DNA of 64,000 nucleotides, from sequence record MT446405.1, one strand, 5' to 3'. Position 1 is the first letter of the stretch. Each line of letters begins with the position of its first letter. The position numbers and the translations under genes were made by a program. Shown here one piece after another: positions 3,407 through 59,397 of this stretch. The notes beneath the pieces were generated by a model, which ran no database searches, was not told the origin of the DNA, and worked only from the letters and a program-made list of their open reading frames with translations. The stretch comes from Escherichia virus TH32.

Positions 3407-4024
3407 TTAACGAGTCAATTGTACAATGGTATAAGTGGAAGACTGGACGCTTGGGCCGGAAAGGGCAATAGCAGTCGGGTCAATCACGATACCGCCTGGA
3501 ATGGCAACCATGCCAGTTGGCAGTGAGCCAGTATAGGCGATAATTGCACCGATAGGCAAGTTGTTCGGGTTGTTACCGCTGGAAATGCCTTTAGGTACAT
3601 AAGCGAGCAGGTCGCCGTAGTTCAGCGTCTGCGGACTGGTGCTTGGGTTGAATACTTCAACTACGAGGCCCGTGCACATATCGTAGAACTCGCCTTCGCT
3701 ATATTGAGGCAGAACCATGCTGGCACCCAAAGGACCAGTAGAGTTGCCATACAGAGCGTAACGCTTGCTGTTGCCAAGGATGCCATAGTAATTGGTGCCG
3801 CCCAGTTCAACTTCAAAGTCCTGCGCGCCCAAGGTTTTGGTCTGGCCAGTACCCATTAATGACACATCAGCCTTAAAACCAAACACACGGCTGATGGCGT
3901 TTACGTTTGCACCGTCGTTGGCGCTAACGATTCGGCCTGGCTTCCCACGCTGTGGGCCGTCGCGAACGATGTCGCCAGGAAAGCCAGTTGTATATTGACG
4001 GCCTACACTAGTTTGGAAAGTCAT
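3407..4024 (-). CDS. Gly/Ser-rich capsid-associated protein (possible decoration protein)
   Basis: Start moved to Met at 4024 preceded by AAGGGGA RBS; lies between scaffold and capsid genes. Confidence 0.3.
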   Translation of the reverse strand: MTFQTSVGRQYTTGFPGDIVRDGPQRGKPGRIVSANDGANVNAISRVFGFKADVSLMGTGQTKTLGAQDFEVELGGTNYYGILGNSKRYALYGNSTGPLGASMVLPQYSEGEFYDMCTGLVVEVFNPSTSPQTLNYGDLLAYVPKGISSGNNPNNLPIGAIIAYTGSLPTGMVAIPGGIVIDPTAIALSGPSVQSSTYTIVQLTR

Positions 4025-4026
4025 GT

Positions 4027-5448
4027 TTATTCCCCTTTCAACCAAGCTTCAAATGCTTCGTCAGTTGCTGCAGAATCCGCAGCGGCCTTTTGTTTTGCGA
4101 CTACACGCTGTTTTTGACCGTGCTCAACGCCGCGCAGATAATTATCCACCACGTCAAACTCAGCCCCATCAACGCACTTCAAGCCTAACTTTTTAGCGCC
4201 ATATTTCGCTACGGACTTGGAGTCCATAGTTGCATGATCAAAGGCACCAACAACTTTAGACAGGCGCTGGTAGAGGCTATTCTTACGAGCAGAATCAGCG
4301 TAGAAAGCAGCAACTGCTGAATCAGATGCCATTGAGTGTTCCCCTTTTGCTGGACCTGGCGACGCTTTCGCCGCTTTTGTCGGTTTGTCATCTTTTTCGA
4401 CCGAAGCCCCCTTTACGTTGCTGTTTTGCAGGCCGCTAACCACATCTTCAGCTTTGTCGCAAGGTGATACATCTTCAGCCTTGACTTCAACTTCTTCTTC
4501 GTCTTTGACTTCGGCTTCAACTTCTTCTTCATCACCTACCGCGCCACCTTTCAGTTTTGCAATAAGTGCTTCGATTTGGCTGATCAATTGCGGAAGTTCG
4601 CCGCCAGCGTGAGATTCAGCTTCAACTTCAAACTTCTCTTCACCTTCTGGGGTTTCTTCTGCTTCTGCCTTGACTTCTGGATCAACCATTACTTCTTCAC
4701 GATTTTCGGTTGAGTCCTTCTCTTCTGCTTTCACTTCAACTTCATCCTGATGAGCAGCTTCAGTACTCTCTTCGTTCAGAAATTGTTCGAGCGCAGGAAT
4801 CAGTGATTTCAGCTGTTCAACAGCATTATCACGCGCTTTACCTTTTAACGGTTTTGGCATGTCTAAATCCTCGTTGGATGGTGTTACAGTCGTCAAACAA
4901 AGATGGTCAAAGCAACGACCATCCAGCACCCGTGCACCTGGTACTCGACCAACGTCCACGAGAGCAATGTGGTTGCCGCGAAGAGTTGTCTGCACCACTT
5001 CATACGGCTGCCCGTCAAACTCTCCAGACTGTATGATGAATTCACAGTCATAGCCCAAAGACAAGTCAACCTTTCCAGAATCAATGGCCTTCTTAAGACG
5101 ACGGCTGAACACTTTAAGGTCGCCGCGCATCCATGGCTTGTCATAATAAACATTGCCAGTCAGAACGCCATCAACTCCATACTCTTCGGGTGCTGTGTTA
5201 TCCTCATCACCTTCAAATCCAGAAAGCATTTCGTGATTGTCGATGAAAGGGATATTTTTGAATGAATCTATCGCTTCGGGGTCTTTCACCGCTGACTCAG
5301 GGCGATAGACTTTTACGATGCGATTCGGATCACCATCAAGACCAACTTGACCAGCAGAATAATCAAAAATGCCAAATGACGAAATTGGACAACCCATAAT
5401 CGTCAAGAATCCATTTTTGTCAATTTCGCGTGCCGTTTGCATTCGCAT
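4027..5448 (-). CDS. scaffolding protein (possibly fused to prohead protease-like N-domain)
   Basis: 473 aa with long acidic Glu/Val/Ala/Lys-rich central stretch (EEEVEAEVKDEEEVEVKAED...), GAGGGTGG RBS; position between portal and capsid genes. Confidence 0.45.
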   Translation of the reverse strand: MRMQTAREIDKNGFLTIMGCPISSFGIFDYSAGQVGLDGDPNRIVKVYRPESAVKDPEAIDSFKNIPFIDNHEMLSGFEGDEDNTAPEEYGVDGVLTGNVYYDKPWMRGDLKVFSRRLKKAIDSGKVDLSLGYDCEFIIQSGEFDGQPYEVVQTTLRGNHIALVDVGRVPGARVLDGRCFDHLCLTTVTPSNEDLDMPKPLKGKARDNAVEQLKSLIPALEQFLNEESTEAAHQDEVEVKAEEKDSTENREEVMVDPEVKAEAEETPEGEEKFEVEAESHAGGELPQLISQIEALIAKLKGGAVGDEEEVEAEVKDEEEVEVKAEDVSPCDKAEDVVSGLQNSNVKGASVEKDDKPTKAAKASPGPAKGEHSMASDSAVAAFYADSARKNSLYQRLSKVVGAFDHATMDSKSVAKYGAKKLGLKCVDGAEFDVVDNYLRGVEHGQKQRVVAKQKAAADSAATDEAFEAWLKGE

Positions 5449-5471
5449 CCACCCTCAAATAAGTATTGTGT

Positions 5472-5500
5472 ATTATATCTAATGAAAAAAACTTAGGCAA
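5472..5500 (-). promoter_or_regulatory. sigma70-like promoter for scaffold/capsid genes
   Basis: Minus strand TTGCCT-N17-TATAAT about 25 nt upstream of start at 5448. Confidence 0.4.
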
Positions 5501-5558
5501 ACAATAATTATGGTTTGAATATGTATAACAACCGATATAGCCGCGCCTTTATTAGTGT

Positions 5559-5830
5559 GATACGGATGATACGGATAAAATGAGGCGTATTTTTATCCGT
5601 ATCGGTGTATAAGCCGCGCTATCACTGGTGTGCTACGGATGATACGGATGATACGGATACTTTTCATATATAAGAGTTTATAAAAAAATAAAATTAAATT
5701 AGATATATAATTTTAAATTAATTTATTTGAATTCCTATATAGTACTGCGGCAACGCGTATCATCCGTATCATCCGTAAGATTCTTTTGAAAACAACAACT
5801 TACTTGATACGGATGATACGTCATTATACG
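5559..5830. repeat. iteron cluster flanking AT-rich core (copy 1)
   Basis: GATACGGATGATACGG-type repeats in both orientations at 5559-5577, 5634-5660, 5756-5779, 5806-5820 around a >85% AT core at 5660-5745. Confidence 0.7.
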
Positions 5831-6011
5831 TATAAAACTCGCAGCAATCCTTTGCCGATGAATTCAGTGAATATTAAATAGCACTCCTGCCACTAAAACG
5901 CCAATCAACATCGAGTCATAAACAGCCCATTTCCAAGAAAGCAAAGAGTTGCAATTAATATTTCGCACTTTAACATAACGTGACTGAATAATCTTTTGCA
6001 TAACTTCCTCT

Positions 6012-6932
6012 TTAGTTCAGCTTAATTGCGGTGATCTGTCCGTAAACGGTAGATGTCAACGCGTCGGTGCACTGATAGTTTAAATACACATTACCAGGCG
6101 CGGCAAGAGTAATTACTTTTGTTGGGATGTTGCCGCCGAAGCGACCTGCAGCCCGAATGCCAGCTGACATGGCAAATGCATCATCCGTAATATCTGAATT
6201 GCTTGTTGACAATTTGACTGTAATTCCGGTATTCGCTTGAACGCCTGCTGTCGCGACAGTCAACTGACTTGCTGTTACAAGCCATTTCCCTGCAGGAAGG
6301 TTTAAGGTTGCCAGATTGACCAAAGTTGTTGGAGGATTGCTGACGCTATTAGTGGCATTCTGGACGGTACTTGCTGCTGCATTAAGCACACCAGACCCAT
6401 CAATTGATAGAGTTGTACCGACCTTTACGCCGCCTAAAGTAGATGCTGAGGCAATCGGCAATGAGTATTGGGTGACGCTGATTGTACCATCACCTGCTAC
6501 GCTTATTCCGGTGCCTATTTTGACGCCACCAAGAACGGAAGCTGTTGCCGCTGGTAACGTGTATTGGTTGCCGCTGGTTTTCACAACTTTGACTGCGACA
6601 GCGTTTTTCGACCCTCCAGACTCCATACCTATGATCACTGCTTCACCAAAAGCAATGGTGATTGTTGATGCAGTCAAGCCAGTTTGAACGTCTGTGATGT
6701 TCATCTTAGGCACAGACAATGTCAGGTTAGGCTTGCTGGTCGAATCGCCATCATTGCCAATCATAAAGAATTGACCTACTGAGTTATACCCTGATGCAAG
6801 CGGCGGGCTCAGTGGAACAATCAAGTTTTTATCAGAAGTGAATTCTGAGACAATTGCCAAGCCATTAGCATACACCGCAGGCAAGACTGGAGTTTGTCCA
6901 GATAGAGGGAATGTGTTGATTGGTATCGTCAT
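6012..6932 (-). CDS. fibre-like repeat protein (head fibre/decoration or receptor-binding candidate)
   Basis: Internal duplicated motif ASVLGGVKIGTGISVAGDGTISV / ASTLGGVKVGTTLSIDGSGVLNA typical of phage fibre repeats; start set to Met at 6932 with GAGGT RBS. Confidence 0.4.
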   Translation of the reverse strand: MTIPINTFPLSGQTPVLPAVYANGLAIVSEFTSDKNLIVPLSPPLASGYNSVGQFFMIGNDGDSTSKPNLTLSVPKMNITDVQTGLTASTITIAFGEAVIIGMESGGSKNAVAVKVVKTSGNQYTLPAATASVLGGVKIGTGISVAGDGTISVTQYSLPIASASTLGGVKVGTTLSIDGSGVLNAAASTVQNATNSVSNPPTTLVNLATLNLPAGKWLVTASQLTVATAGVQANTGITVKLSTSNSDITDDAFAMSAGIRAAGRFGGNIPTKVITLAAPGNVYLNYQCTDALTSTVYGQITAIKLN

Positions 6933-6939
6933 AATGACC

Positions 6940-7791
6940 TCAGATAATTGGTATTTTTCTGCACTTGCAGTGTATTGCCCATCCAGGAGGACCGATGTCA
7001 CCCTTTTTGAACTTAAGTTCTCCACCTACTTCCCATAAGCGTTTGTCATCAAGCTTGAATCTCATGCCGTCGACGTGCTCATGTGATATTCGCGGCTCTT
7101 TGCCTGCTCCTGAATGCGCCCACTCAAATTCCTCAACGCCATTCTGTCGCATCCTTTCATCACTTAATACGCAATAAAGTTTGCTCGTTTGGTCTTTGGC
7201 GATAAGGTCTACGCGTTTTGCAGAGAATTGTTTTACATTCCTTAGTGCCGCCTGAATGCCGGATGTGCCTTGCTGCGCTGGGTCTGGCGAAGTCAGCGAA
7301 AGCATCACCGCTTCGTACACCCTGTTGTGAATATCCTCGCCAACCTTAGTCACTAGAGTCGTGTTGAACGTCTCGCTTGTTTTAAGAGTGTTCTCAACGA
7401 ATTTATTATATGTGGCTTTTGGCGCTTCTATTCCTGCAGATTTAAGACTTGCGAATGTAGCAGAAGTCGCACCCTTTTCAACTGACTTGATGAAATCTGC
7501 GGCAATCTTTGACCCAACACGGGCGAATGCTTTTGCCCATTTCAGTTGAAGGCGCTTCATCAAGGTCTGAAAAGTTGAATCAGCAGAGTCTTGCGCAAAG
7601 AACTTTTTCACCTGCTTCTTTTCAAGCCACTCAGCAATGCCTGCCTGATAGTCATCAATCATCGCATAGCAAAGACCTTTCATCTCACGACGATAGGCCA
7701 TCGCAATAGCGTTGGATGGGATTATCGGACTGCCGCGCCCGATTCTATCGGGTGAGCGGCGTTCGCGTTTTTTCGAAGCTTTAAAAGCCAT
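6940..7791 (-). CDS. head morphogenesis / minor head protein (putative)
   Basis: Basic N-terminus, position directly downstream of portal gene; start chosen at Met abutting portal stop. Confidence 0.35.
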   Translation of the reverse strand: MAFKASKKRERRSPDRIGRGSPIIPSNAIAMAYRREMKGLCYAMIDDYQAGIAEWLEKKQVKKFFAQDSADSTFQTLMKRLQLKWAKAFARVGSKIAADFIKSVEKGATSATFASLKSAGIEAPKATYNKFVENTLKTSETFNTTLVTKVGEDIHNRVYEAVMLSLTSPDPAQQGTSGIQAALRNVKQFSAKRVDLIAKDQTSKLYCVLSDERMRQNGVEEFEWAHSGAGKEPRISHEHVDGMRFKLDDKRLWEVGGELKFKKGDIGPPGWAIHCKCRKIPII

Positions 7792-7792
7792 A

Positions 7793-10168
7793 TCAACCTT
7801 GCTTCGGTGAATTAGTAGGATTATTGAGTGCTCCATATGCTTGAGAGCAATCACCCTTCAACCACTCCTTGAATGAGTTTACATCCAATTCGTGGATTGA
7901 GTCAAATCCATTCCAACCGTTACCAAATGATGCTTGATAAGCTTCTTTCGCTTCTTCTGCTGAATCAAATCCAAGCATACACTTGTGTTCATCAAATTCG
8001 CCAGAATAATTATCATTTTGGTTAACGATAAAGACTTTCGGCGACTTCATATTTGGACCAACAAAGCAGTCGACTTCATCGTCGTCTGCACCCTTGGTGC
8101 CTTTGATGAATCCGTAGTGGTGCGACATCTTCACTGCCCATTCACCGTCAAGGCTGTTCCCTCTACGGATGCTGTTGCGAGGATTCTCAATACCAAGAAT
8201 CATCCCGTGCAACTTCATCTTAGGTAATGATGCTGCGTCCATTTTACCAACGTTATGGCGTAAGTTTACGACGTTCCCTTTGACGCTTGGAAGGGTAGAC
8301 GGTTGCACCGACCGTGAATCTTTTTGAGGGTCAAAATCCACATCCTGCCCTTCTTTCAGGTAGTAATCAGCAATGCCCTCCAGACCTTCTTTCAACTGCG
8401 TTAGGACATCAACCTGATGGCTTGATTCATCATCGGTATCGTCCATGTTGATTTCGACAGGTGCTCTGTCAGGGTTTTCCGCCAACTCACCACGCGCGGC
8501 ACCTTCTGGCATAATACCTGTTTCGCTATAGAACTGGCCGCCCATCTTAACGACATCAGCTTTCGCCTGCTCAATATCGGCCTTACCTTGCAGGACTTCA
8601 CCAGCAGACTTGCCAAGCAATGCCATATTCTCTGGAGACATTCCTGGGGTTTCTTCTGCTGCGTCTTCCGGCAGACGGTTGTAGCCGCTGTTTTTGTCGT
8701 CTTTGATGCGGTCGCGCTCTTCATCAGGAGAAATGACGCCAGCATCAATAAGAGTTTTGCCAGTGTTAGCTCGCTTGTCGTTGATTTCTGCAAGTTGAGT
8801 AGCAGTAAGTGAGCCAACTGGTTCCCATGCAACCTTAACGTCGACTTCCACCCCTTCTGATTTGAGAAGGATTTTATAATGGCGGTCGAGAATTTTTGTC
8901 AGGTCATGCTGCTGGCACGTTTCCAACTCTTCGTGATAGCTGACCATCTCGAATTCACCAGTGGCGTTAAAGCCTTTTGGCGAAGTACCAAGCAGTTTGG
9001 TCGACGGAACTTTTGCGATTGCGGCCACCAGCTGGTACTGGTTCATGATGATGCTGTCGAAGTCTGACAAGTTAATGTCGAACTGGTCCATCTCTTCTTT
9101 TTGGCCAAGCACTTTGACTGCATAGTTGTCGCGATACTTGATCCACATCATCAGACGTTCGGCAAAAGACCGCTCATTGGCAATCGCCTTGTCAACGTCG
9201 GTCCGCAGCGTGGTTGTACGCTTGGACATCGCCAGCAATGGCGCTTCGTTAGCGGTGCGTTCAGCGGCATAGATGCGTTCATAAATCTGCTGAGTCAGAG
9301 GAATGCCGCCGTAAATATAAGTCGGCTTTAGAATATCAGCTGGCTCATCGTTGCGCAAGATGATTAGGTGGCTGCGATGATAACGCTGGCCGCTGATCAC
9401 CCAGTATTCTGGATCATAGAAGTGCTGTGATGCAGGGTCGGCGGTGTTTTCAGACGTCAAGAATGGCATCATCCAATAAGGGTCAACCTGAATAATTCCC
9501 TTATAAGACCCTTTTGTCACACCATCGATGTTAAAAGGTTTGCTATAATATTCTGGGTCATCGCTGCGCACGTCAAATATGATGACGCGAATGCCAAAAA
9601 TATTCTTGAATCGTTCGGCTTCAACTAAGTGCTCTTTGATATTAAATTCTTTATCAATTTGCTTTAGGCGTTCGCTGGCCTGTACTGACAATTCCGACTC
9701 AGAACTGGATTTGACTTCCCAGCCTTTACGGACCGCATCGCGGCCTACCATGGAACAAGCCTTGTTCACCAGCCAGTGCTGCGCGATGATGGCGCAAGCT
9801 TGATATCCGATAAATGATTGCGATAAGTACCAGTTTTGCAACTGAATAGGTACTGTGTATGGATTAACCTGCCCTTCTGAACTGATGTTCTTCAAGGCAT
9901 TGTCCATAACTTTTTTGGATACGGTTGCTGAATCTACTGAGCGACCTTTGATGATTGCAACACCGTCCCCGTTGATATCAGGCTCATATAAAGGAAAGTC
10001 ATCAACGGTTTTAAAGGTCGGGCGGTTGCTTTCGGTCTTATCCCAGCGTTGACCGCTGCCGCGCCTTTCCAGGCGTTCAAACGGTGCCAATGGGTCGCCT
10101 GGCGGCATCTCCGCTTGTTCGGCTTCTGGTTGCGTCTTCTCCCAGAGTTTTATGCCAAGAATTTTCAT
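7793..10168 (-). CDS. portal protein (putative)
   Basis: 791 aa ORF immediately downstream of terL block; start at Met 10168 with AGGTGG RBS; no motif verified. Confidence 0.5.
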   Translation of the reverse strand: MKILGIKLWEKTQPEAEQAEMPPGDPLAPFERLERRGSGQRWDKTESNRPTFKTVDDFPLYEPDINGDGVAIIKGRSVDSATVSKKVMDNALKNISSEGQVNPYTVPIQLQNWYLSQSFIGYQACAIIAQHWLVNKACSMVGRDAVRKGWEVKSSSESELSVQASERLKQIDKEFNIKEHLVEAERFKNIFGIRVIIFDVRSDDPEYYSKPFNIDGVTKGSYKGIIQVDPYWMMPFLTSENTADPASQHFYDPEYWVISGQRYHRSHLIILRNDEPADILKPTYIYGGIPLTQQIYERIYAAERTANEAPLLAMSKRTTTLRTDVDKAIANERSFAERLMMWIKYRDNYAVKVLGQKEEMDQFDINLSDFDSIIMNQYQLVAAIAKVPSTKLLGTSPKGFNATGEFEMVSYHEELETCQQHDLTKILDRHYKILLKSEGVEVDVKVAWEPVGSLTATQLAEINDKRANTGKTLIDAGVISPDEERDRIKDDKNSGYNRLPEDAAEETPGMSPENMALLGKSAGEVLQGKADIEQAKADVVKMGGQFYSETGIMPEGAARGELAENPDRAPVEINMDDTDDESSHQVDVLTQLKEGLEGIADYYLKEGQDVDFDPQKDSRSVQPSTLPSVKGNVVNLRHNVGKMDAASLPKMKLHGMILGIENPRNSIRRGNSLDGEWAVKMSHHYGFIKGTKGADDDEVDCFVGPNMKSPKVFIVNQNDNYSGEFDEHKCMLGFDSAEEAKEAYQASFGNGWNGFDSIHELDVNSFKEWLKGDCSQAYGALNNPTNSPKQG

Positions 10169-18054: not shown

Positions 18055-18640
18055 CCGCGCAGGAGTGTACTGCAAATTTCCTGTGGGTACAAAATAGTAC
18101 GGTACTGTCCAGGACTTTTTCTTTGAAAAGTTAGTGGACCAAATGTGTAGTATTTTGATTAGTGTACCGCAAATTCCATCAAGTACCAAAACGCACCAAA
18201 AGACCCATGCCATAAAAACCACACGAACGCAATAATCAATCGACGTTACAGTTTCCAGCGTTACAATTCGAAAGCGAATGATTCGACGCATAATAATATG
18301 AAGCATAATGATTCGAAAGCAAATGATTGCGTGTAGGATAATATCGGTGGGGATTATTCTAGATGCATGTAATTTCGCATGCGTACTATTTTCGGACGAA
18401 GGGTCGGCATATTCCTCGTTTTAGTTCGGAACGAAGGGAAAGTTTTGCGCCTTTATAAAACAACGACTTACGCGACCCGCCCTAACGGTCCGATATAGGT
18501 GTCTATATAAAACAAGGACTTACGCGATGTTCTCCATTTAACGTAATACCTGTTATGCGAACTAAGACGCATCTCGAAGAAGATTATGCGACGACGAAGG
18601 GAAGGATAAAGGAGTTTTCGCGTAGGAGCGCATCGAGATA
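18055..18640. repeat. repeat-rich non-coding region
   Basis: Approx. 600 bp without credible ORF; repeat families GTAC(T/C)GCAAATT(T)CC, AATGATTCGAAAGC, CGAAGGGA and TATAAAACAA(C/G)GACTTACGCGA. Confidence 0.6.
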
Positions 18641-18645
18641 GGGAC

Positions 18646-18671
18646 GAAGAAAAGCCGCGACTAAGCGCGGC
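18646..18671 (-). terminator. rho-independent terminator (minus strand)
   Basis: Minus-strand GCCGCG-cttagt-CGCGGC followed by UUUUCUUC, 20 nt after stop of 18692..18982. Confidence 0.55.
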
Positions 18672-18691
18672 CTATTAGTAACGGAAGGGTA

Positions 18692-18982
18692 TTATAAGGA
18701 GACGATTTTAAAATAAGTTACTTCGCCGCCGAGTTGCGGTACAGCGATATATTCGCCGCCGATTTCGGTAATCGTATAAACGAAGCCGTTAATCGTTACG
18801 CGATAGGATACGATGTCCTCGTCGCGATACTTGTAAAGGTCGAGGAAGTTGATCGGCTCATAAATAGACTCGATAATCGCGTCTACGTTAGAGAGATAAA
18901 CGCTCTCTAAGGTTTCGCCAAATACGTTAGAGTTTTCGGAAGTTTCGACGCGAGCGGAACGGATAGCGGCTAAAGTAATCAT
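18692..18982 (-). CDS. small acidic protein, paralog family A/C
   Basis: 96 aa, AGGAGA RBS; paralogous to 19617..19901. Confidence 0.6.
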   Translation of the reverse strand: MITLAAIRSARVETSENSNVFGETLESVYLSNVDAIIESIYEPINFLDLYKYRDEDIVSYRVTINGFVYTITEIGGEYIAVPQLGGEVTYFKIVSL

Positions 18983-19049
18983 AATAATCTCCTAGTTGGT
19001 CGGGCGGGTAGCGACCTATTCGCTACCTCATCCCCTCTCGATATAAAAC

Positions 19050-19078
19050 ATTATAGTCTTAGTGTACGAAGAAGTAAA
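19050..19078 (-). promoter_or_regulatory. sigma70-like promoter
   Basis: Minus strand TTTACT-N17-TATAAT. Confidence 0.5.
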
Positions 19079-19090
19079 GCACTTTTTTCG

Positions 19091-19393
19091 TTATTTTGCG
19101 ATAAAATATTTATAAGCTTTATCGCCTTCTACGTCGATATACTCGACGATAATTAATGCTTCGCCGCGAGGCGTAACCGTCTCGATAAGGGTAACGGCTT
19201 CGTCGTCGGTCTTCGCGAAGCGGATGGCGCTACGTTCGGCGTATTTAATTTCGTCGAAGGAAAGGCCGACGAAGGCGACGGCGCGCGCTTTAATAATGCT
19301 CGTTTCGAGTTCCGCGTTAACGGCAGCGATAAGAGAGCGAACGGTTAAGCGGTCTTCGTCGTAAGTAAGGATGGAAGAGATTAAAGTAGTCAT
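19091..19393 (-). CDS. small protein, distant member of the same family
   Basis: Start at Met 19393 with GGGAGC RBS. Confidence 0.5.
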   Translation of the reverse strand: MTTLISSILTYDEDRLTVRSLIAAVNAELETSIIKARAVAFVGLSFDEIKYAERSAIRFAKTDDEAVTLIETVTPRGEALIIVEYIDVEGDKAYKYFIAK

Positions 19394-19449
19394 AATAAAG
19401 CTCCCGATGCTAGTAGAAGGAAGGGCCATCGCCCGTCTCGATATAAACA

Positions 19450-19477
19450 AGTATACGCGAGTGTACGAAGAAGTAAA
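19450..19477 (-). promoter_or_regulatory. sigma70-like promoter
   Basis: Minus strand TTTACT-N16-TATACT. Confidence 0.5.
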
Positions 19478-19520
19478 GAAAAAGATAAAATAATTTATCG
19501 CATTTTTATCGAAAAAGTGC

Positions 19521-19549
19521 TTTACTTTTTTCTACACTATATTATAATG
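19521..19549 (+). promoter_or_regulatory. sigma70-like promoter (divergent partner)
   Basis: TTTACT-N17-TATAAT. Confidence 0.5.
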
Positions 19550-19616
19550 TACTCATATCGGGACGGGATGAGTTAACGAATAGGTCGTTAACGCCTCTCC
19601 CAACTAGGAGTTTAAA

Positions 19617-19901
19617 ATGGCTATTCTTAACGTTTCTTCTATCCGTAACGCCATCGTCGAGAACTACGGCGTAAAACAAAAATTATCCGAAGTCTACGCC
19701 GCGAACGTAGACCAAACTATCGAAGAGGGTGGGGTAACGGTCGCCGAGGCTTTTAAACTTTACGCGGCGTTACCGGAATCGGACCGCGAAGCCTTCGAAG
19801 TAAACGTTAACGGATACTTCTTCGAAGCGGTCGAAATCGGTAATATTTTACTCGTTATGGGCGAAGAAGAATTTGAGACCTTCTCCCTCGTCGAAGCGTA
19901 A
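19617..19901 (+). CDS. small acidic protein, paralog family A/C
   Basis: 94 aa, TAGGAG RBS; shares motifs with 18692..18982. Confidence 0.6.
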   Translation: MAILNVSSIRNAIVENYGVKQKLSEVYAANVDQTIEEGGVTVAEAFKLYAALPESDREAFEVNVNGYFFEAVEIGNILLVMGEEEFETFSLVEA

Positions 19902-19981
19902 GAGAGGATTTTTAGAGCGTCGTGCGCGGCGCTTTAATAAAATTCTTTCGCGCCTAGCGCCCTAACAAATAGGAGTTTATT

Positions 19982-20608
19982 ATGGTTAGCTTAAATCGCT
20001 TTTCTACTAGCGGCGACGTTATCGCAACTAAGACCGCCGACCTCGTTGCATTTTACAATGCAAATTCCGGTTCGAAGCCGATTAAAAAGTTCGCTGACCG
20101 CCGGACCGCCGAGACTCGCGTAATCGCGCTAATCGAGTCCTTAAACGCGCTCGATGAGCCGTCCAACGAATCGCCCATCCCAGACGCGAAGCCGCGCGAG
20201 GAAGTGTCCAGCGATGTAAAAACGCACAAGGCGCGTGCGGTCGTTAAAAAGGCCGAGCCGACCCAGGAAGAACTCGACGCGATGAGCGATGAAGAGTATG
20301 AAGCCTTCGTTAAGAGCGGCTTAAACGATAGTGCAAATTGCGTAGTGCAAAATGGAACTCCTTCCCATCGCCGTTCGAATAGCGAAGGTATTGCAAAAAG
20401 TTGGGATAATAAGGAAGTGGCGCAAAAGCGTCTTACCCGTAACGGCGTTATGGTCGAGGGTGTAGGCGAGTTCAAATCGGTCCGCGTAGCATTCGCCGCG
20501 CTGGGCTTACCGGATAGCAAACACATTCGCTTCCGTATGAAGCTTAAGGAAGCTGGGCGCTTGAACTTCGAGTTCGGCAACAAGTCCTACACATTCCAGA
20601 TTATCTAA
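19982..20608 (+). CDS. hypothetical protein
   Basis: 208 aa, TAGGAG RBS; CpG-rich coding; contains two copies of the ATAGTGCAAAT motif in frame. Confidence 0.5.
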   Translation: MVSLNRFSTSGDVIATKTADLVAFYNANSGSKPIKKFADRRTAETRVIALIESLNALDEPSNESPIPDAKPREEVSSDVKTHKARAVVKKAEPTQEELDAMSDEEYEAFVKSGLNDSANCVVQNGTPSHRRSNSEGIAKSWDNKEVAQKRLTRNGVMVEGVGEFKSVRVAFAALGLPDSKHIRFRMKLKEAGRLNFEFGNKSYTFQII

Positions 20609-20615
20609 TCGAATG

Positions 20616-20640
20616 GCGGCCCTTCGGGGTCGCTTTTCAT
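20616..20640 (+). terminator. rho-independent terminator
   Basis: GCGGCCC-ttcg-GGGTCGC followed by TTTTCAT. Confidence 0.55.
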
Positions 20641-20983
20641 AGTGCAAATTGGTGGCTTATGAATACGCTTATTCTCATCGCTACGTTGTCCATCGGAAGT
20701 GGTCGCACCTTATCCCTTTACGACCATAGTGCAAATTGCGCTTACCCTACGCGCGTTGCGGCAATAGTTAATAGTGCAAATCGAATGCTATTCGAAACTT
20801 GTTGGCGGGTCGATAACGAGAAAGGGCGCATCGTCTTAGGTTATAGTGCGAATCTGCTGGTGGAGTCGTTCGATTGGACGGTTGAAGGTCGTAAATTGTT
20901 ACGTAAGGTGACTAAAAGATGACTTATAATAATACACTTTCTAACGCGTTTATGGTTGTAACCTTCCCCGTCGTATTACCGAT

Positions 20984-21023
20984 GGCCCTAGAAGTGGAGA
21001 AAATGTGTTCTAGGGCCGTTTTA
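20984..21023 (+). terminator. long hairpin, terminator-like
   Basis: 10 bp inverted repeat GGCCCTAGAA / TTCTAGGGCC with 14 nt loop followed by GTTTTA. Confidence 0.35.
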
Positions 21024-21036
21024 TAGTGCAAATTGG

Positions 21037-21509
21037 CTAGTGGCGGGAGAATTGCTCGCCTTCTTTGGCCGCCTCTCCGAAATCCTTGTAGAAATCGTCC
21101 ATGGAACGGCCCATTTTACTATTGCCGTTTTCATCAATCATCGTGATGCCGTAGATGATATTCAGTTCACGAATAGCATTAAGTTTGGCTGACGCCGCGA
21201 CTTCTGGATCACGCACAAGCTTGACCAAATTGTGAATTGCACCTTTTACGCTCCACAAATCCTTGAGTGGCATCTCTTCCATACGCTTTTTGAAGCGCAT
21301 TTTGTAGTATGGGTTGCGTTGCGCGCAAAGGATTCGCTGGCCAGTGTAGCTATCCGTTGCAACTTCCATTCCAAATACTAGTGCAAAAGCTGCGCGCATG
21401 TCATGGCCCTGAATAACAAGGTCAATGAACTCATCGAATAAAGCCTGATTGTGCTCTGCAAATCGCGGGTCTTCAAAGTCTTCAGGCATCGCTACATAAT
21501 CTTGACTCA
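21037..21509 (-). CDS. hypothetical protein
   Basis: Start at Met (MSQDY...) whose ATG lies inside an ATTTGCACTATG motif copy. Confidence 0.45.
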
Positions 21510-21738
21510 TAGTGCAAAATCCCATAGTGCAAATTAATAGTGTGAATTATACAATGGATGGACATTATATTCAAGTGCAGATTGATGTTCATTATGGCTA
21601 TAAACGTACACAAATCACAGTGCTGAATGGATAACGGACCGTGGTGCGTGGTGTACTGTTTGATACGTATAAAAGAAATCCATCCCTTTTGCCGCTTGTT
21701 ATGCAAATCAATGACTTAGCCGCTGCTGGCTGGTCGAA

Positions 21739-22011
21739 GCGTATCATGACGTATCATCCGTATTGCCGCAAGTCTTTGTTTTTACTTATATCTTACGGAT
21801 AATACGTTAAATATATAAATTAACATAAGTATGAGGATGTAGAAAAAAATTAATTTAAATGATTTTAAAATGGAGTTAATTAATTTTTCAAATTATATAT
21901 ATAACGATGCCCAGTTTTATCCGTATCATCCGTAAGATTAATGTACAAGCCAGGCGCGGCAAGGGCTGTACACTGATACGGATAAAAAACCATGACGTAT
22001 CATGACGTAAG
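21739..22011. repeat. iteron cluster flanking AT-rich core (copy 2)
   Basis: Same (C)GTATCATCCGTA-type repeats and AT-rich core (21800-21905) as at 5559-5830. Confidence 0.7.
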
Positions 22012-22270
22012 GGTGTACCAATTTGGAAAGGATGAATCCAGGAACGGCGCGGCCTGTAGCCATGATACGCTTAATTTTTAACCGTATTTTAGGCGTATCA
22101 AATGTGTTCAAACACCAAGTTTCACGACACTAAAATTTCAATCCATAGACAATTCCTAACAAACACCACGGACTAATAGATACGCCCTATAAAATATATT
22201 TCTAAATATTTCCGCACAATCAATAAATAAAACACAACCTCATAATCATTCCATCGCAAAACACGACCCA

Positions 22271-29233: not shown

Positions 29234-29881
29234 TTATCCTGTGGCCTGCATATTGCGTACATACTTCTGCTCTAATGAATAGATGAAGTCGGCGACAGTC
29301 AATCCCTTCGTGTGCCATTCATACATGGTGAAGCCTGTATTCAGGAAATAGCCGCGCACCTTGTCCATCGCTTCAGCTTCCTCCATTGAAGCCATCAGCG
29401 CCGCGACATTGTCATAAGAAGGCACAAATCCCTTCTTGCGTAGCGCATTGCGCAAATCCTTAGTTCGGAATCCAATCTTGCAGGGGTCATCACGACCCGT
29501 GGATGATGCGACCTTTGGAAGAGCAAGGAACTCTTTAAGGAACATTGCAATGTTCAAGTCGCCTGCGTCATCAAGCTTCTGGATTCGGTTGCGACCGCGA
29601 CCCTTGAATTCACTCGCACGAGGGTGAGAGCCAAAACAGTGCGCCCCTTCCAGTTTAGGGTCAATGATCATTACATCTTTCCCAATGCGCAACTCTACGT
29701 AGTAAAGATAAGACTCATCGACAAGCTTTGTGCGCTTGCAAGTGATTGAGTCCTTATCATAACCAAAGCCACGCAACACGGTTGAAATCATCCGGTTCAT
29801 TTCTTCGCCGTGAACATCACTTTCTTTGTTCAGTTCACCAAGATGTTGAAAGAATTTAGCGATGTTGATTGCTTTATTCAT
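29234..29881 (-). CDS. hypothetical protein
   Basis: 215 aa directly downstream of helicase gene. Confidence 0.4.
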   Translation of the reverse strand: MNKAINIAKFFQHLGELNKESDVHGEEMNRMISTVLRGFGYDKDSITCKRTKLVDESYLYYVELRIGKDVMIIDPKLEGAHCFGSHPRASEFKGRGRNRIQKLDDAGDLNIAMFLKEFLALPKVASSTGRDDPCKIGFRTKDLRNALRKKGFVPSYDNVAALMASMEEAEAMDKVRGYFLNTGFTMYEWHTKGLTVADFIYSLEQKYVRNMQATG

Positions 29882-31551
29882 CAGAATTCATCCTTATCTC
29901 TTCCCAAAGAACGTTTACGCTCAATAACCTTCTTCAAGAATTCAATATCTTCAGGGTCAGACTCATCGCGGATAAGATACGCTAAGATGGTCATCAAATC
30001 AGAAATGTATTCTCCTGCTTCATTCTTAATCAGCGGCGTAAAGTAACCGCGCTGGTTGCGATAGGTTGCAGGCTCAAAACCAAGCTTCGACATATGCGGC
30101 GCAAGGGTACGAGAGAAAGGCGACTTGCCGCACTTCGCTCTGAATCCCATAGCAATAGCACCACTGGTGATGTGCCAGCGTCCGCTGTGATGTCGGTCAT
30201 AAGGCGCGGTGATGACGACTTCAACAAGGTCGTTGTCCACCATCTCATCACGAATAACGCCGCGCGCACGTTCCATTTCGTTCTTACTAAACTCAGTAAG
30301 CATGCGAGATGTTTCACCAACAAACGCGTTGTAACCTGCTTCGCCGTGTTTTTCCATCCACGCAGCACACTCAGCCATCAACTGCCAAACGTCTTCTTTC
30401 AAAGTGGAAAGGTCAGCTTGGAAATCTTTCGACCAGTTCGGTTGCCCGTCCTTGTCAGCGAGTTGGCCAACAAAGATAGGGTACACACGACGGTTGCCCG
30501 TGTCGTCACGCTGCATGCCTGCGTATTCGTTGCCGTCCATGATCGCAATCCACTGGCGTGGTTTAACCTGAGTATCTTCAAATTTGAAGTCCAGGTCATC
30601 TTCCGTCTTAGTCAGGAATGCTTTCATGTTTTCGATGTCGGCCTTTTTAAAGCCTGTCATCTCGCCAACGTTCGCGATAATTGAGCGACCCGTAATAGCT
30701 CGCAAGAACGGGTTGAAGTTCTGCGCGGCTAAGTTCAACGGAATCGGTGTTGCGTGGCGGTCGTTCATAATAGCTTCGCAAAGCAGCTTGCTAAAATAAC
30801 TTTTCCCTGCGTTCTGGCCGCCGATGAGCGCGATAGAAATTGGCGCTTGACAGCCAGGGTTGGTCAGGCGGTTATAGAGCGATAGCCAAAAATACACACC
30901 GATTTGTCGGTTTAACTCTGTATCGAACGGTCGGAATAGCTCGATAAGGTATTTCTCGATGCGCGCAGTACCGTCCCATTCAGGCAGCTTCTTGTAGAAG
31001 AAGTCCATCAGGTCGTCGCGCTGATAACGCATGGCCCATTCCTTATAGGATTGAGCGACCTGACGTGAGTTTGGGTTAGACAGCCCTGCTGCGTCGACAG
31101 CGGCAACTATCTCTGTGACTTCCAAGGTACGGTCAGTGAATGTTTCGCCGCGATGGTCGACTAAGCGCCCACGAAAAGTATCTTTGTGAGGGAATGGAAC
31201 AATGCCACTTCCCTTATCAAACAACGCGTCGAAAACCGCATAACGGTTCATGTCACTCGTCCGGTCTGCCTGTAGAACGAAGTCATCTTTGGTAGGCTTG
31301 TAGTGAGGGAACTTGATTACCTGAAGTGAGGCGAGCAAGCGTGCTCTTTCAACCAAGTCTTCTTCACCGTAGCATTCCATGCGCTCTGAATCTTTTTCAA
31401 CAGCTTTATGTTGAAGGCTGATTTTAGCTCTGGTGCCTTGCTGCTCTGCTGCCTGCATTTCTTCCGAAACGCCTGCATCTTGAATTTCGTCAAAGATTGC
31501 ACCAAATTCATCACCTGTATCCTCTGGAAGATTGTCATTATTAATTGACAT
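29881..31551 (-). CDS. P-loop NTPase, D5/VirE-like primase-associated helicase (putative)
   Basis: Walker A IALIGGQNAGKSYF in C-terminal half, 556 aa; occurs with an AEP primase two genes upstream. Confidence 0.5.
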   Translation of the reverse strand: MSINNDNLPEDTGDEFGAIFDEIQDAGVSEEMQAAEQQGTRAKISLQHKAVEKDSERMECYGEEDLVERARLLASLQVIKFPHYKPTKDDFVLQADRTSDMNRYAVFDALFDKGSGIVPFPHKDTFRGRLVDHRGETFTDRTLEVTEIVAAVDAAGLSNPNSRQVAQSYKEWAMRYQRDDLMDFFYKKLPEWDGTARIEKYLIELFRPFDTELNRQIGVYFWLSLYNRLTNPGCQAPISIALIGGQNAGKSYFSKLLCEAIMNDRHATPIPLNLAAQNFNPFLRAITGRSIIANVGEMTGFKKADIENMKAFLTKTEDDLDFKFEDTQVKPRQWIAIMDGNEYAGMQRDDTGNRRVYPIFVGQLADKDGQPNWSKDFQADLSTLKEDVWQLMAECAAWMEKHGEAGYNAFVGETSRMLTEFSKNEMERARGVIRDEMVDNDLVEVVITAPYDRHHSGRWHITSGAIAMGFRAKCGKSPFSRTLAPHMSKLGFEPATYRNQRGYFTPLIKNEAGEYISDLMTILAYLIRDESDPEDIEFLKKVIERKRSLGRDKDEF

Positions 31552-32860: not shown

Positions 32861-33943
32861 CTATTTTATGCCACCTGCACGACGATTTATCATGTCAAGT
32901 TGATTCTCAATATAAGGCATGACGATTGCTTCAACAAAAGCAGTCCAACCTTTCTTGCCTTCCCCTTTCCGGTGACAGTCGTGGGCGCAACCGAACACAA
33001 ACTCATGTTCTGCACCAGGGATAGGGCCGCGAAAGTAAGCGCCATACGGGTCGCCGTTGGTGTGTTCTTCACCCCAAGGACAGATTATGCGGCACTTGCC
33101 TGACATATTCTCGATGACGTCGCCATCAGACCCTTCACCCATCTTGTTGCGCGCTAGAATTTGCTGGGCTATTTTATACCAAACAGCATCATACTTGTAT
33201 TCATCGACGTCAATTTGAATCTCACGCTTTTGCGGCATGACGACGTGAAAGCCAAATGCCTGACAAATGTCTTCGATGGTGTAGCGCAAGGAGTAGTCTG
33301 CATGGACAAGTCGGCAGCGGAACGGGTTGCCGTTCTCATCGACATATTTATAGGGGCCGTCGTGAGTCACACGCTTGTTGTTGATGCACCCAGGAACACG
33401 GCCCACGCGCGTTACGTCTTTAATCGTGTTGTCGCCGCCCTTCTTGAGTACCATGTTTACGAAAGACCCAAGGAATGCTTTGAACTGAATAAGATGGTCA
33501 ATCGGTTCTTTAAAGAAGTACCAAAGCTGGTGGTTGTTCGGTGAAGTCTCGACGATGACAGTCGGCTTCAGTCGCTCAAAAAAGAATTCCAAATCTAAAT
33601 CGCCTTTGGACCCTTTACCGTGACCGATGTCGTCGACCATCATCGCCATGCCGTGACCAAAGGCCGACTCTGTACGCCAGTATCGCATCTCACCCGTCTT
33701 TGGGTTGGGAGACTTACGCATTGAACTGATGCACGCATAGCCGTTTTGGTGCTGCATGAGCGGCTTGCCCAGCTTCCAAGGCTTAGGCCAAAAGCTACTG
33801 TTAATCTTCTTGCCGCGCTCATCGGTCTGCACCGTTGCTTCAGGCGCAAACACCGTCATGACGCGTTCATCTTCTGGAATGCCTCTTTGGAGTTCTGTTA
33901 AAAACTCTTCGATTATTTTTGCTTCTTCTCTTAAACTAGCCAT
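32861..33943 (-). CDS. archaeo-eukaryotic-type primase (prim-pol) domain protein
   Basis: Motifs MAMMVDDIG (DxD), SPNNHQLWYFF (sxH) and RVPGCINNK resemble AEP motifs I-III; first gene of early operon. Confidence 0.55.
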   Translation of the reverse strand: MASLREEAKIIEEFLTELQRGIPEDERVMTVFAPEATVQTDERGKKINSSFWPKPWKLGKPLMQHQNGYACISSMRKSPNPKTGEMRYWRTESAFGHGMAMMVDDIGHGKGSKGDLDLEFFFERLKPTVIVETSPNNHQLWYFFKEPIDHLIQFKAFLGSFVNMVLKKGGDNTIKDVTRVGRVPGCINNKRVTHDGPYKYVDENGNPFRCRLVHADYSLRYTIEDICQAFGFHVVMPQKREIQIDVDEYKYDAVWYKIAQQILARNKMGEGSDGDVIENMSGKCRIICPWGEEHTNGDPYGAYFRGPIPGAEHEFVFGCAHDCHRKGEGKKGWTAFVEAIVMPYIENQLDMINRRAGGIK

Positions 33944-58672: not shown

Positions 58673-59397
58673 TCTATCATATCCCCAGTTCTGTTTCCAG
58701 GTCCGTTACCTATGTGACCGTGAGTGGATACATTTGTGCCGCCGATTGTTGTGCCAGTCGGAAGCGTTGCCGTCGTTCCTTCTTTCCCTTCTATACCACC
58801 ATTGAACGTTGCCTTTCCATTCACTATCAATTGTTGGTCGATAGTGGTTATTGGTGTTTTCACATTTACTCCAGCCGATGCAGTTATGTTTATCGAGTCA
58901 TCACTTAATGCAATGCGGACAGCGCCGCTGAGTGACTGGATTACCATTGAGCCTGCATCCTCTCCGCTTATGGTGTATTTTCGAAATACATCCGGTATGA
59001 ACAGTCCATCAGCGAAAGTTTTCGCGCGACCATTGGTAGGCGCGGTCGGCTTCAATTCTTCAAGGAATGTCGACAACTCGCGGTCGCCAGCGAATATCCA
59101 GCCCAAATCACCCTCTTTCAGAGGAAAGTTGATTACGAAGCCGCCGCCGCCGATTGCCAATACAGGAATTGACACCAAAGGTTGACGCTCCACTGGTTTA
59201 TCATCAAGACTTACGAAGTGAATAACAGGCTTTATGACTGCTAAATTCTGTTTGCGGTCATAAGATATTACTTGTGCAGGAATCATGCCGTCAGTGGTAT
59301 ACTTGCCACGGTCCAGCATTCCCTGCAGCGCGGCAAACATACTTGATTTGTCAGTTTGGTTGGGGCTTGTAAGTTGGGTTAACTTTTCTGCCATCAT
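58669..59397 (-). CDS. baseplate spike/assembly protein (V-like), putative
   Basis: Start at MMAEK with AAGGAG RBS; Gly-rich C-terminal beta-strand-like repeats; position-based. Confidence 0.35.
   Translation of the reverse strand: MMAEKLTQLTSPNQTDKSSMFAALQGMLDRGKYTTDGMIPAQVISYDRKQNLAVIKPVIHFVSLDDKPVERQPLVSIPVLAIGGGGFVINFPLKEGDLGWIFAGDRELSTFLEELKPTAPTNGRAKTFADGLFIPDVFRKYTISGEDAGSMVIQSLSGAVRIALSDDSINITASAGVNVKTPITTIDQQLIVNGKATFNGGIEGKEGTTATLPTGTTIGGTNVSTHGHIGNGPGNRTGDMIE

Follow-up and report, generated by a model that had tools for sequence, protein, structure and literature searches.

The 64,000-nucleotide stretch of Escherichia virus TH32 analysed here (sequence record MT446405.1; the window) carries at positions 5559-5833 an iteron-flanked AT-rich element (copy 1; 5539-5833 with its flanking box) that is a conserved paralogue of the packaging-initiation and genome-end element of the same phage (copy 2, 21737-22011). 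Copy 2 is the place where the ends of virion DNA are made, a cut within its AT-rich core giving rise to the left terminus of the virion DNA, at which a terminal repeat of approximately 3.7 kb begins. The window was assigned to Wifcevirus, whose members are E. coli myoviruses with genomes of approximately 68 kb plus the terminal repeat of about 3.7 kb, described as distant kin of the Pseudomonas PB1-like phages (genus Pbunavirus). Positions 4000-8000 exhibited 99% identity to Escherichia phage VerenaGrendelmeier_Bas101 (Bas101) and 93-97% identity to 27 other Wifcevirus records. The window is oriented as the reverse complement of the record of Bas101, the closest relative, whose complete genome was used to check the clustering of the repeats.

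An earlier note on this DNA had described iterons around an AT-rich stretch with a similar architecture some 16 kb away, and both parts of this description were confirmed. The 17-mer ATACGGATGATACGGAT, allowing up to two mismatches, occurs six times in the window, in every case within the two loci, and was absent from 100 dinucleotide-preserving shuffles. The heptamer TACGGAT is present 20 times in 64 kb, comprising nine occurrences at locus 1, five at locus 2 and six elsewhere, and in the complete genome of Bas101 the two loci are the only two repeat clusters. Local alignment of locus 1 with locus 2 scored 61 in direct and 79 in inverted orientation against a shuffle mean of 23 (standard deviation 2.6, maximum 39), a similarity well beyond low-complexity A/T, and genomes of the Bas101 type possess an identical 35-nt block, CTTACGGATGATACGGATGATACGCGTYGCCGC, in both loci. 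The inverted orientation is slightly better in the window, whereas other Wifcevirus genomes and all other lineages favour the direct one; the orientation of the copies was not treated as informative because the elements are quasi-palindromic. Both copies are situated upstream of minus-strand genes as claimed, copy 1 being followed by the gene at 4027..5448 and copy 2, which has the same design around a core of 103 nt, by that at 21037..21525. The interpretation placed on these observations was upheld in part: the iteron-flanked two-copy cis-element stands, as probably does its binding by a sequence-specific protein, whereas an origin function found no direct computational support.

The position of the cut in copy 2 was obtained from the ends of related genomes. 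Position 1 of the Mansfield record, representing the start of a direct terminal repeat of 3,673 bp predicted by PhageTerm, corresponds to the junction of 21871 and 21872 in the window. The WFC record, from an independent laboratory, starts at the same base as Mansfield and has an exact 3,784-bp copy at both of its ends, while the record of ECO71P1 ends approximately 10 nt from this junction. A terminal repeat of 'about 3.7 kb' was reported by Korf et al. (2019). By homology to WFC the direct terminal repeat, of about 3.7 kb, can be placed at 18118..21871, with a less certain right boundary at approximately 18118 (WFC) or 18198 (Mansfield). The AT-rich core of copy 2 extends over 103 nt (21808..21910, 84% A+T) and, as judged from record starts, the left genome end falls inside it between 21871 and 21872, where the minus-sense sequence reads AATTAACTCC up to the cut and ATTTTAAAA beyond it. 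The cut is 47 nt from the inner array on the unique-sequence side and approximately 345 nt upstream of terS, the gene of the small terminase (TerS). The 15-mer AATTAACTCCATTTT is invariant in seven Wifcevirus genomes, despite two very different allelic forms of the unique-side flank among them, and is also present in the metagenomic relative L021, whose TerS is 68% identical.

Paired elements were identified in Wifcevirus, Kylevirus (Pantoea phage Kyle), Myosmarvirus (Serratia phage MTx), Pbunavirus and Burkholderia phage Karil-Mokiny-1, five lineages in all; the gene immediately downstream is terS for one copy and that of the head protease for the other. Inverted arrays of two to three units are found on both sides of the core in both copies throughout the five lineages, repeats flanking the cleavage region being a feature of packaging (pac) sites. 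The repeat unit is lineage-specific and common to both copies, being GATACGGAT in Wifcevirus, GGTTATT in Kyle, ACTTTTC in MTx, GGTAATTT or GGAAATT in PB1 and TAGTTAY in the Burkholderia phage. No exact match to the 18-mer was found in IMG/VR outside Wifcevirus, and the link to the other genera is visible solely through synteny. Within genomes, the paralogues align over approximately 250 nt with scores of 125 in Kyle, 127 in MTx and 77 in PB1, compared with 21 ± 2.5 for shuffled sequences. Since the unit differs among phages of closely related hosts (E. coli, Pantoea and Serratia), the protein that binds it would appear to be encoded by the phage and not to be a host factor. The records of Kyle and MTr begin approximately 360-380 nt upstream of terS; Kyle has an exact terminal repeat of 3,603 bp and MTx one of 3,566 bp as predicted by PhageTerm. 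In four lineages the cut is located approximately 40-50 nt from the inner array of the unique side despite differing sequences at the cut site, these distances being read off the sequences. The combination of a constant distance from the array and a variable cut sequence suggests that a bound protein positions the nuclease.

Pbunaviruses PB1 and JG024 possess the homologous element 500-700 nt upstream of terS, with AATTTCC and GGTAATTT arrays around a core of approximately 105 nt. In JG024, a hotspot of long-read starts at 59,376 ± 5 (36 of 161 reads) has been reported together with a matching pac fragment (Ipoutcha et al. 2024, PMC10913387). This hotspot maps inside the core of the homologous element, and the GenBank records of BrSP1 and fHoPae01 both begin exactly at the hotspot base. 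Published accounts of Pbunavirus genome ends, PMC10913387 among them, otherwise contradict one another. The putative pac site of JG024 is the orthologue of copy 2, its hotspot lying in the core between the AATTTCC and GGTAATTT arrays; the difference is that the accessible portion of PMC10913387 gives a coordinate only and describes no iteron architecture, second copy or conservation across genera. In Pseudomonas phage SAM2 (positions 1-140 of its sequence, L025) three tandem units of approximately 39 nt, CACCCGCCACCATCACCCGCCACCAGCCAATCCGATCCT, are situated between the copy-2 element and terS, compared with about one in PB1 and JG024.

Copy 1 differs from copy 2 at the bases surrounding the cut. 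In Wifcevirus it is devoid of the cut-site ACTCC, AATTAATTTAA being followed by an alignment gap and AATTAT where copy 2 reads AATTAACTCC, the cut and ATTTT. Half of the 16-bp near-palindrome present at the cut is missing from copy 1 of MTx, and the cut-site segment is missing from that of PB1. None of 28 Wifcevirus records or the sampled Pbunavirus records starts or ends at copy 1, an observation on record ends as opposed to reads that is compatible with a minor terminus. A virion DNA end, as expected in or next to a pac site, was thus found at copy 2 and not at copy 1, which is also removed from terS by 16 kb and from terL by 5 kb. The retention by copy 1 of the arrays and most of the core, together with the loss of the bases at the cut position, suggests that it binds the protein without serving as an end. 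Copy 1 is under constraint, and across 10 Wifcevirus genomes it varies less than the coding sequence on either side: three of 86 columns are variable in the core and approximately eight of 306 across 5440-5745, compared with 29 of 400 in the flanking coding sequence. The sole change in array length is the loss in Bas101 of one 9-bp unit from the inner-right array of copy 1 (equivalent to 5757-5765), by which the phase of the array is kept.

The reading preferred here, put forward tentatively and with somewhat less than even confidence, is that the arrays are candidate binding sites of TerS and that copy 1 is an uncut auxiliary site. The arrays would act as landing sites for a single phage-encoded, sequence-specific protein, most likely the ring-shaped TerS, and the protein bound to them would position the non-specific nuclease of the large terminase. 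Copy 1 would bind the same protein as copy 2 but would not be used as a genome end; its role is likely to be auxiliary, as an additional loading site or partner site of the terminase, or alternatively the same protein may influence the head-assembly operon that starts approximately 100 nt downstream. Positioning of the nuclease by the small terminase is the mode of action at the pac sites of P1 and SPP1 and at lambda cos, and by analogy TerS is favoured as the binder. The virion ends mapped at copy 2 and at its Pbunavirus orthologue constitute the only experimental data on this type of element and point to packaging.

Several observations weigh against this reading. The inner arrays are inverted, whereas a ring of identically oriented subunits should prefer direct repeats, and there is little precedent for a second terminase site, which would be expected to harm a phage with fixed ends. 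Similarity of the TerS N-termini does not clearly track that of the repeat units in six taxa, and copy 1 of Kyle has kept a near-identical cut-site sequence. Tabernariusvirus has an element of the copy-2 type (unit TAGTCA) and no copy 1, with only a GCGCGGCA...TGCCGCGC palindrome kept upstream of its protease gene; at least one lineage can therefore do without copy 1. The adjacency of terS is no guide to the choice of model, because the opposite flank of copy 2 is occupied by the gene of a VapE-like helicase in PB1, MTx, the Burkholderia phage and Tabernariusvirus. Finally, TerS of phage E217 is stated in a review to have no appreciable DNA binding in vitro, the DNA tested being unspecified there (PMC9611059).

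A broader proposition, which is doubtful, is that the PB1-like myoviruses (Pbunavirus, Wifcevirus, Kylevirus, Myosmarvirus and relatives) employ a two-site system, in which one lineage-specific protein acts on the end site and on an uncut site before the head operon. Such a system could take either of two forms. TerS may bridge or sense both sites before cutting, in the manner of T4 synapsis, or may couple the initiation of packaging to head-gene expression. Alternatively, the element may be a combined replication origin and packaging site, initiation and end formation sharing one nucleoprotein complex.

The replication origin proposed in the earlier note is a serious competitor, if an unlikely one on balance. 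Both copies would be origins, or one an origin and the other an auxiliary cis-replication site, with the iterons bound by the C-terminal region of the VapE/D5-like SF3 helicase; two opposed helicase rings would load on the inverted arrays and melt the core, the RepB-type primase would prime, and the cut in copy 2 would represent a separate function embedded in or recruited to it. The window codes for both proteins, the helicase, an alternative candidate iteron binder, at 29881..31551 (minus strand; Pfam VapE-like_dom, E=1.6e-28) and the RepB-type (RSF1010-like) primase as a separate gene at 32861..33943 (minus strand). Multiple short repeats beside an AT-rich region, the part of the claim that was sustained, are a feature of iteron origins, and inverted arrays of short units around an AT-rich core are the origin design of SF3 helicases (SaPI ori, P4 ori/crr and SV40). 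Origins in two copies are well known, whereas pac sites in two copies are not. Copy 2 lies immediately 3' of the helicase gene in the four phages in which the two adjoin, but in Wifcevirus and Kyle 6-9 kb separate the gene from copy 2, and its distance from copy 1 in the window is approximately 24 kb. Identity between lineages is 46-64% in the helicase core and 19-32% in the C-terminal 125 or so amino acids, as expected of a specificity domain, yet Kyle and PB1, which have the most similar iterons, exhibit the least similar helicase C-termini (19%). Cumulative GC skew, which the earlier note had offered as a check, tracks gene orientation with no switch at copy 1 (5.6 kb) and, because it mirrors gene orientation, is uninformative as a test of an origin. 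There are no perfect DnaA boxes in the window and boxes with one mismatch occur at the level of chance (54 observed, 62 expected), although neither a skew switch nor DnaA boxes are obligatory for a phage origin. The model alone leaves unexplained a virion end within the core at a conserved distance from the array in four lineages, and the core is nearly invariant, beyond the needs of a simple unwinding element.

Regulation of transcription, also raised in the earlier note, appears improbable as the function of the element. Copy 1 would represent an enhancer or operator cluster for a strong late promoter of the protease, scaffold and capsid genes and copy 2 the same for terS, both served by a dedicated phage factor, and the genome end would be coincidental. 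The copies do lie upstream of minus-strand units, between a terminator and a sigma-70-like promoter, and this portion of the claim holds; near-consensus promoters precede terS in Kyle and MTx, copy 1 is always ahead of the most highly expressed head genes in the five lineages, and Pbunavirus 14-1 has a class of promoter requiring phage factors (PMC10914365). The spacing between array and promoter is not fixed, however, varying from approximately 60-100 bp at copy 1 to 150-200 bp at copy 2 and, in the case of PB1 copy 2, exceeding 400 bp. The annotation of Bas101 includes no transcription factor, the same head operon is expressed in Tabernariusvirus with neither the arrays nor the core of copy 1, and the likeness of the copies over approximately 250 nt, including the core, would remain unexplained. 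Least probable of all, and very doubtful, is that copy 1 is a functionless relic of the packaging site that arose by duplication or gene conversion and has been kept similar by recombination between the copies. The greater likeness over approximately 250 nt of paralogues within a genome than of orthologues between lineages is consistent with gene conversion, and the absence of copy 1 from Tabernariusvirus fits a dispensable remnant. Against this, the same position has been kept in five lineages despite a divergence that leaves their TerS proteins 30-45% identical, copy 1 is less variable than the flanking coding sequence in the 10 Wifcevirus genomes, and it takes up 400-500 bp in otherwise compact genomes.

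Copy 1 contains twelve 9-bp units of the GATACGGAT type spaced 9-10 bp apart, about one helical turn, and accompanied by AGCCGCGC or GCGGCAA boxes. The inner arrays point inwards at a core of 86 nt (5660..5745, 88% A+T) that is homologous to the core of copy 2 on the basis of alignment, and a perfect 22-nt inverted repeat (5634-5655 and 5756-5777) encloses this core. On the left, a AGCCGCGC box on the plus strand is followed by a 12-nt spacer, an outer-left array of two GATACGGAT units (5559-5576) and AAAA, this stretch (5539..5576) forming a 38-nt unit that recurs 73 nt further on at 5612-5649. A single inverted unit on the minus strand, TTTTATCCGTATC (5591..5603, the 9-bp unit at 5595-5603), constitutes a 13-nt inverted repeat with 5568-5580. 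The second AGCCGCGC box and the three units of the inner-left array, GCTACGGAT GATACGGAT GATACGGAT (5632-5658), occupy 5612..5658 on the plus strand and are aimed at the core. To the right of the core, within 5747..5779, a GCGGCAA box on the plus strand (5747-5753) is succeeded by the three units of the inner-right array (5753-5779), which read CTTACGGAT GATACGGAT GATACGCGT on the minus strand and are likewise aimed at the core. The outer-right array, GATACGGAT GATACGTCA TATACGTAT followed by AAAA (5806..5833, plus strand), has a near-identical counterpart in copy 2, namely the outer array on the terS side.

Boxes of GCCGC or GCGGC stand beside the arrays of both copies in every lineage, for example at 5747, 21769 and 21956. 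GCGGCAA is present 39 times in the window against approximately six expected from base composition, and GCGGCA 102 times against approximately 22, on both strands and mostly within genes. This excess may be an effect of codon usage or may represent a second recognition motif. Neither core contains an exact IHF consensus; a site with one mismatch is found in the equivalent spacer of both copies, such sites being common (96 in the window).

Downstream of copy 1, the gene at 4027..5448 (minus strand) codes for the head maturation protease (Pfam DUF2213, E=4.6e-35; phrog_3778, E=2e-171; Bas101 annotation) and is the first of an operon comprising the protease, a scaffold-like protein and the major capsid protein. 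Between copy 1 and the start of this gene at 5448 lies a sigma-70-like promoter, TTGCCT-17-TATAAT (5472..5500, minus strand), predicted from a match to 10 of 12 consensus positions and without variation among 10 Wifcevirus genomes. Beyond the opposite end of copy 1, a terminator-like hairpin (5842..5857, minus strand) closes the upstream unit of portal, MuF-like, head-fibre and small open reading frame (ORF), the last of these being represented by 5864..6001 (minus strand), which matches Bas101_0007. Copy 2, like copy 1, has a terminator-like hairpin on one side and, upstream of minus-strand genes, a sigma-70-like promoter on the other; both intervals are therefore probably little transcribed. 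No RNA gene was identified in the whole window using Rfam at gathering thresholds or ARAGORN, making an RNA gene within the element unlikely.

On the terS side of copy 2 (21737..21809) the outer array at 21737-21764 reads AATACGGAT GATACGTCA T GATACGCTT on the minus strand and is followed by a GCGGCAA box (21763-21769, minus strand) and an inner array at 21792-21809 (CTTACGGAT AATACGTTA, plus strand); this segment is highly conserved in seven genomes. The unique-sequence side (21919..22011) comprises an inner array at 21919-21936 (minus strand), a GCGGCAA box at 21956-21962 (plus strand) and outer units at 21975-21983 (plus strand) and 21993-22011 (minus strand). The flank on this side (21937-22130 and its equivalents) exists in two unrelated allelic forms, both with iterons and a GCCGC box, type A being present in the window, WFC and a metagenomic genome and type B in Bas101, ECML-117, FEC19 and Mansfield. 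To judge by their sequences, these alleles represent mosaic exchange in which the candidate binding sites have been retained.

At the right boundary of the terminal repeat (18064-18181) no GATACGGAT units were present. The right end must therefore be set differently from the left, possibly by headful measuring. An 18-nt direct repeat, AGTGTACYGCAAATTYCC, at 18064 and 18161 brackets the right boundary of WFC (approximately 18118), while that of Mansfield is approximately 80 nt away; a related sequence, CAGTACACTAATCA, is found near the right boundary in Kyle.

The small terminase gene (21037..21525, minus strand) is the first gene inside the terminal repeat and was identified with phmmer through similarity of residues 7-152 to the decameric TerS of E217 (PDB 7UXE, E=6e-34). 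This ORF yielded no match in Pfam, and its PHROG match, phrog_4783, is of unknown function. Homologues of TerS were found in 358 phage records, and terS is immediately preceded by an element of the copy-2 type in Wifcevirus, L021, L022, Kylevirus, Myosmarvirus, Pbunavirus, the Burkholderia phage and Tabernariusvirus. In E217, terS is located far from terL (PMC9611059). The sequence TGCACTATG occurs twice, 15 nt apart, over the terS start codon (21508-21533, minus-sense) and three times in L021; it may be an operator or a translational control site. The near-consensus sigma-70 promoters before terS read TTGACG-17-TATAAT in Kyle (approximately 275-320) and TTGACT-17-TATAAT in MTx (approximately 315-345), which suggests that TerS is made by unmodified host polymerase, possibly early, unlike the product of terL.

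In the searchable literature the putative pac coordinate of JG024 is all that has been published on this element; its iteron architecture, the units that co-vary across genera and the second copy were not found described there. Few Pseudomonas phages are used in therapy as much as the PB1-like ones, and the structure of their TerS has been solved. The present analysis assigns the cut that forms the genome end to a well-delimited, conserved element with candidate binding sites, offering a substrate for structural and biochemical work; in Pbunavirus the candidates are the GGTAATTT and AATTTCC arrays around JG024 position 59,376. The element has a bearing on the engineering and rebooting of phage genomes, where it indicates sequences to keep intact, and on the assessment of transduction risk. 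The uncut copy before the head genes would represent a second origin or else a feature of packaging control that is new. Wifcevirus isolates Bas98-101 grow on a derivative of E. coli K-12 and are thus genetically tractable.

Known systems resemble the element in part. Black and co-workers reportedly proposed for T4 gp16 a 'pac synapsis', in which TerS binds two homologous sites a few kb apart in genes 16 and 19, a model said to be unsettled; two sites brought together by TerS would be common to both, but those of T4 are short and lie within coding sequence, in contrast to the elaborate intergenic elements described here. The SaPI ori and P4 ori/crr have two element-specific sets of iterons around an AT-rich region of approximately 80 bp, immediately 3' of a helicase gene of the D5/VapE/alpha type, and P4 requires two iteron loci kilobases apart. 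The iteron and AT-rich design is shared with these origins; no virion end lies in them, whereas copy 2 is a cut site and any origin activity here is putative. SPP1 oriL and oriR are two modules of iterons and AT-rich DNA, one near the replication genes and the other in the late region, and thus provide a likeness in the form of a two-copy iteron module within one genome; they differ in being bound by a dedicated protein, G38P, and in being separate from pac.

Among packaging sites, SPP1 pac (pacL-pacC-pacR) and lambda cosB/cosN have TerS sites that flank or adjoin the cleavage site, with bendable A/T-rich DNA between them, next to terS. This layout is that of copy 2, but neither system has tandem arrays of 9-bp units or a paralogous copy elsewhere. 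In P1 pac, clusters of four and three hexamers flank a cut region of approximately 90 bp in or next to the gene of the recognition subunit; the hexamers contain Dam sites, the site is present as a single copy and packaging is by headful. The likeness to P1 pac resides in the repeat clusters on either side of a cut region of about 90 bp near the gene of the recognition subunit, and the difference in the 9-bp lineage-specific units, the inverted arrays and the second, uncut copy found here.

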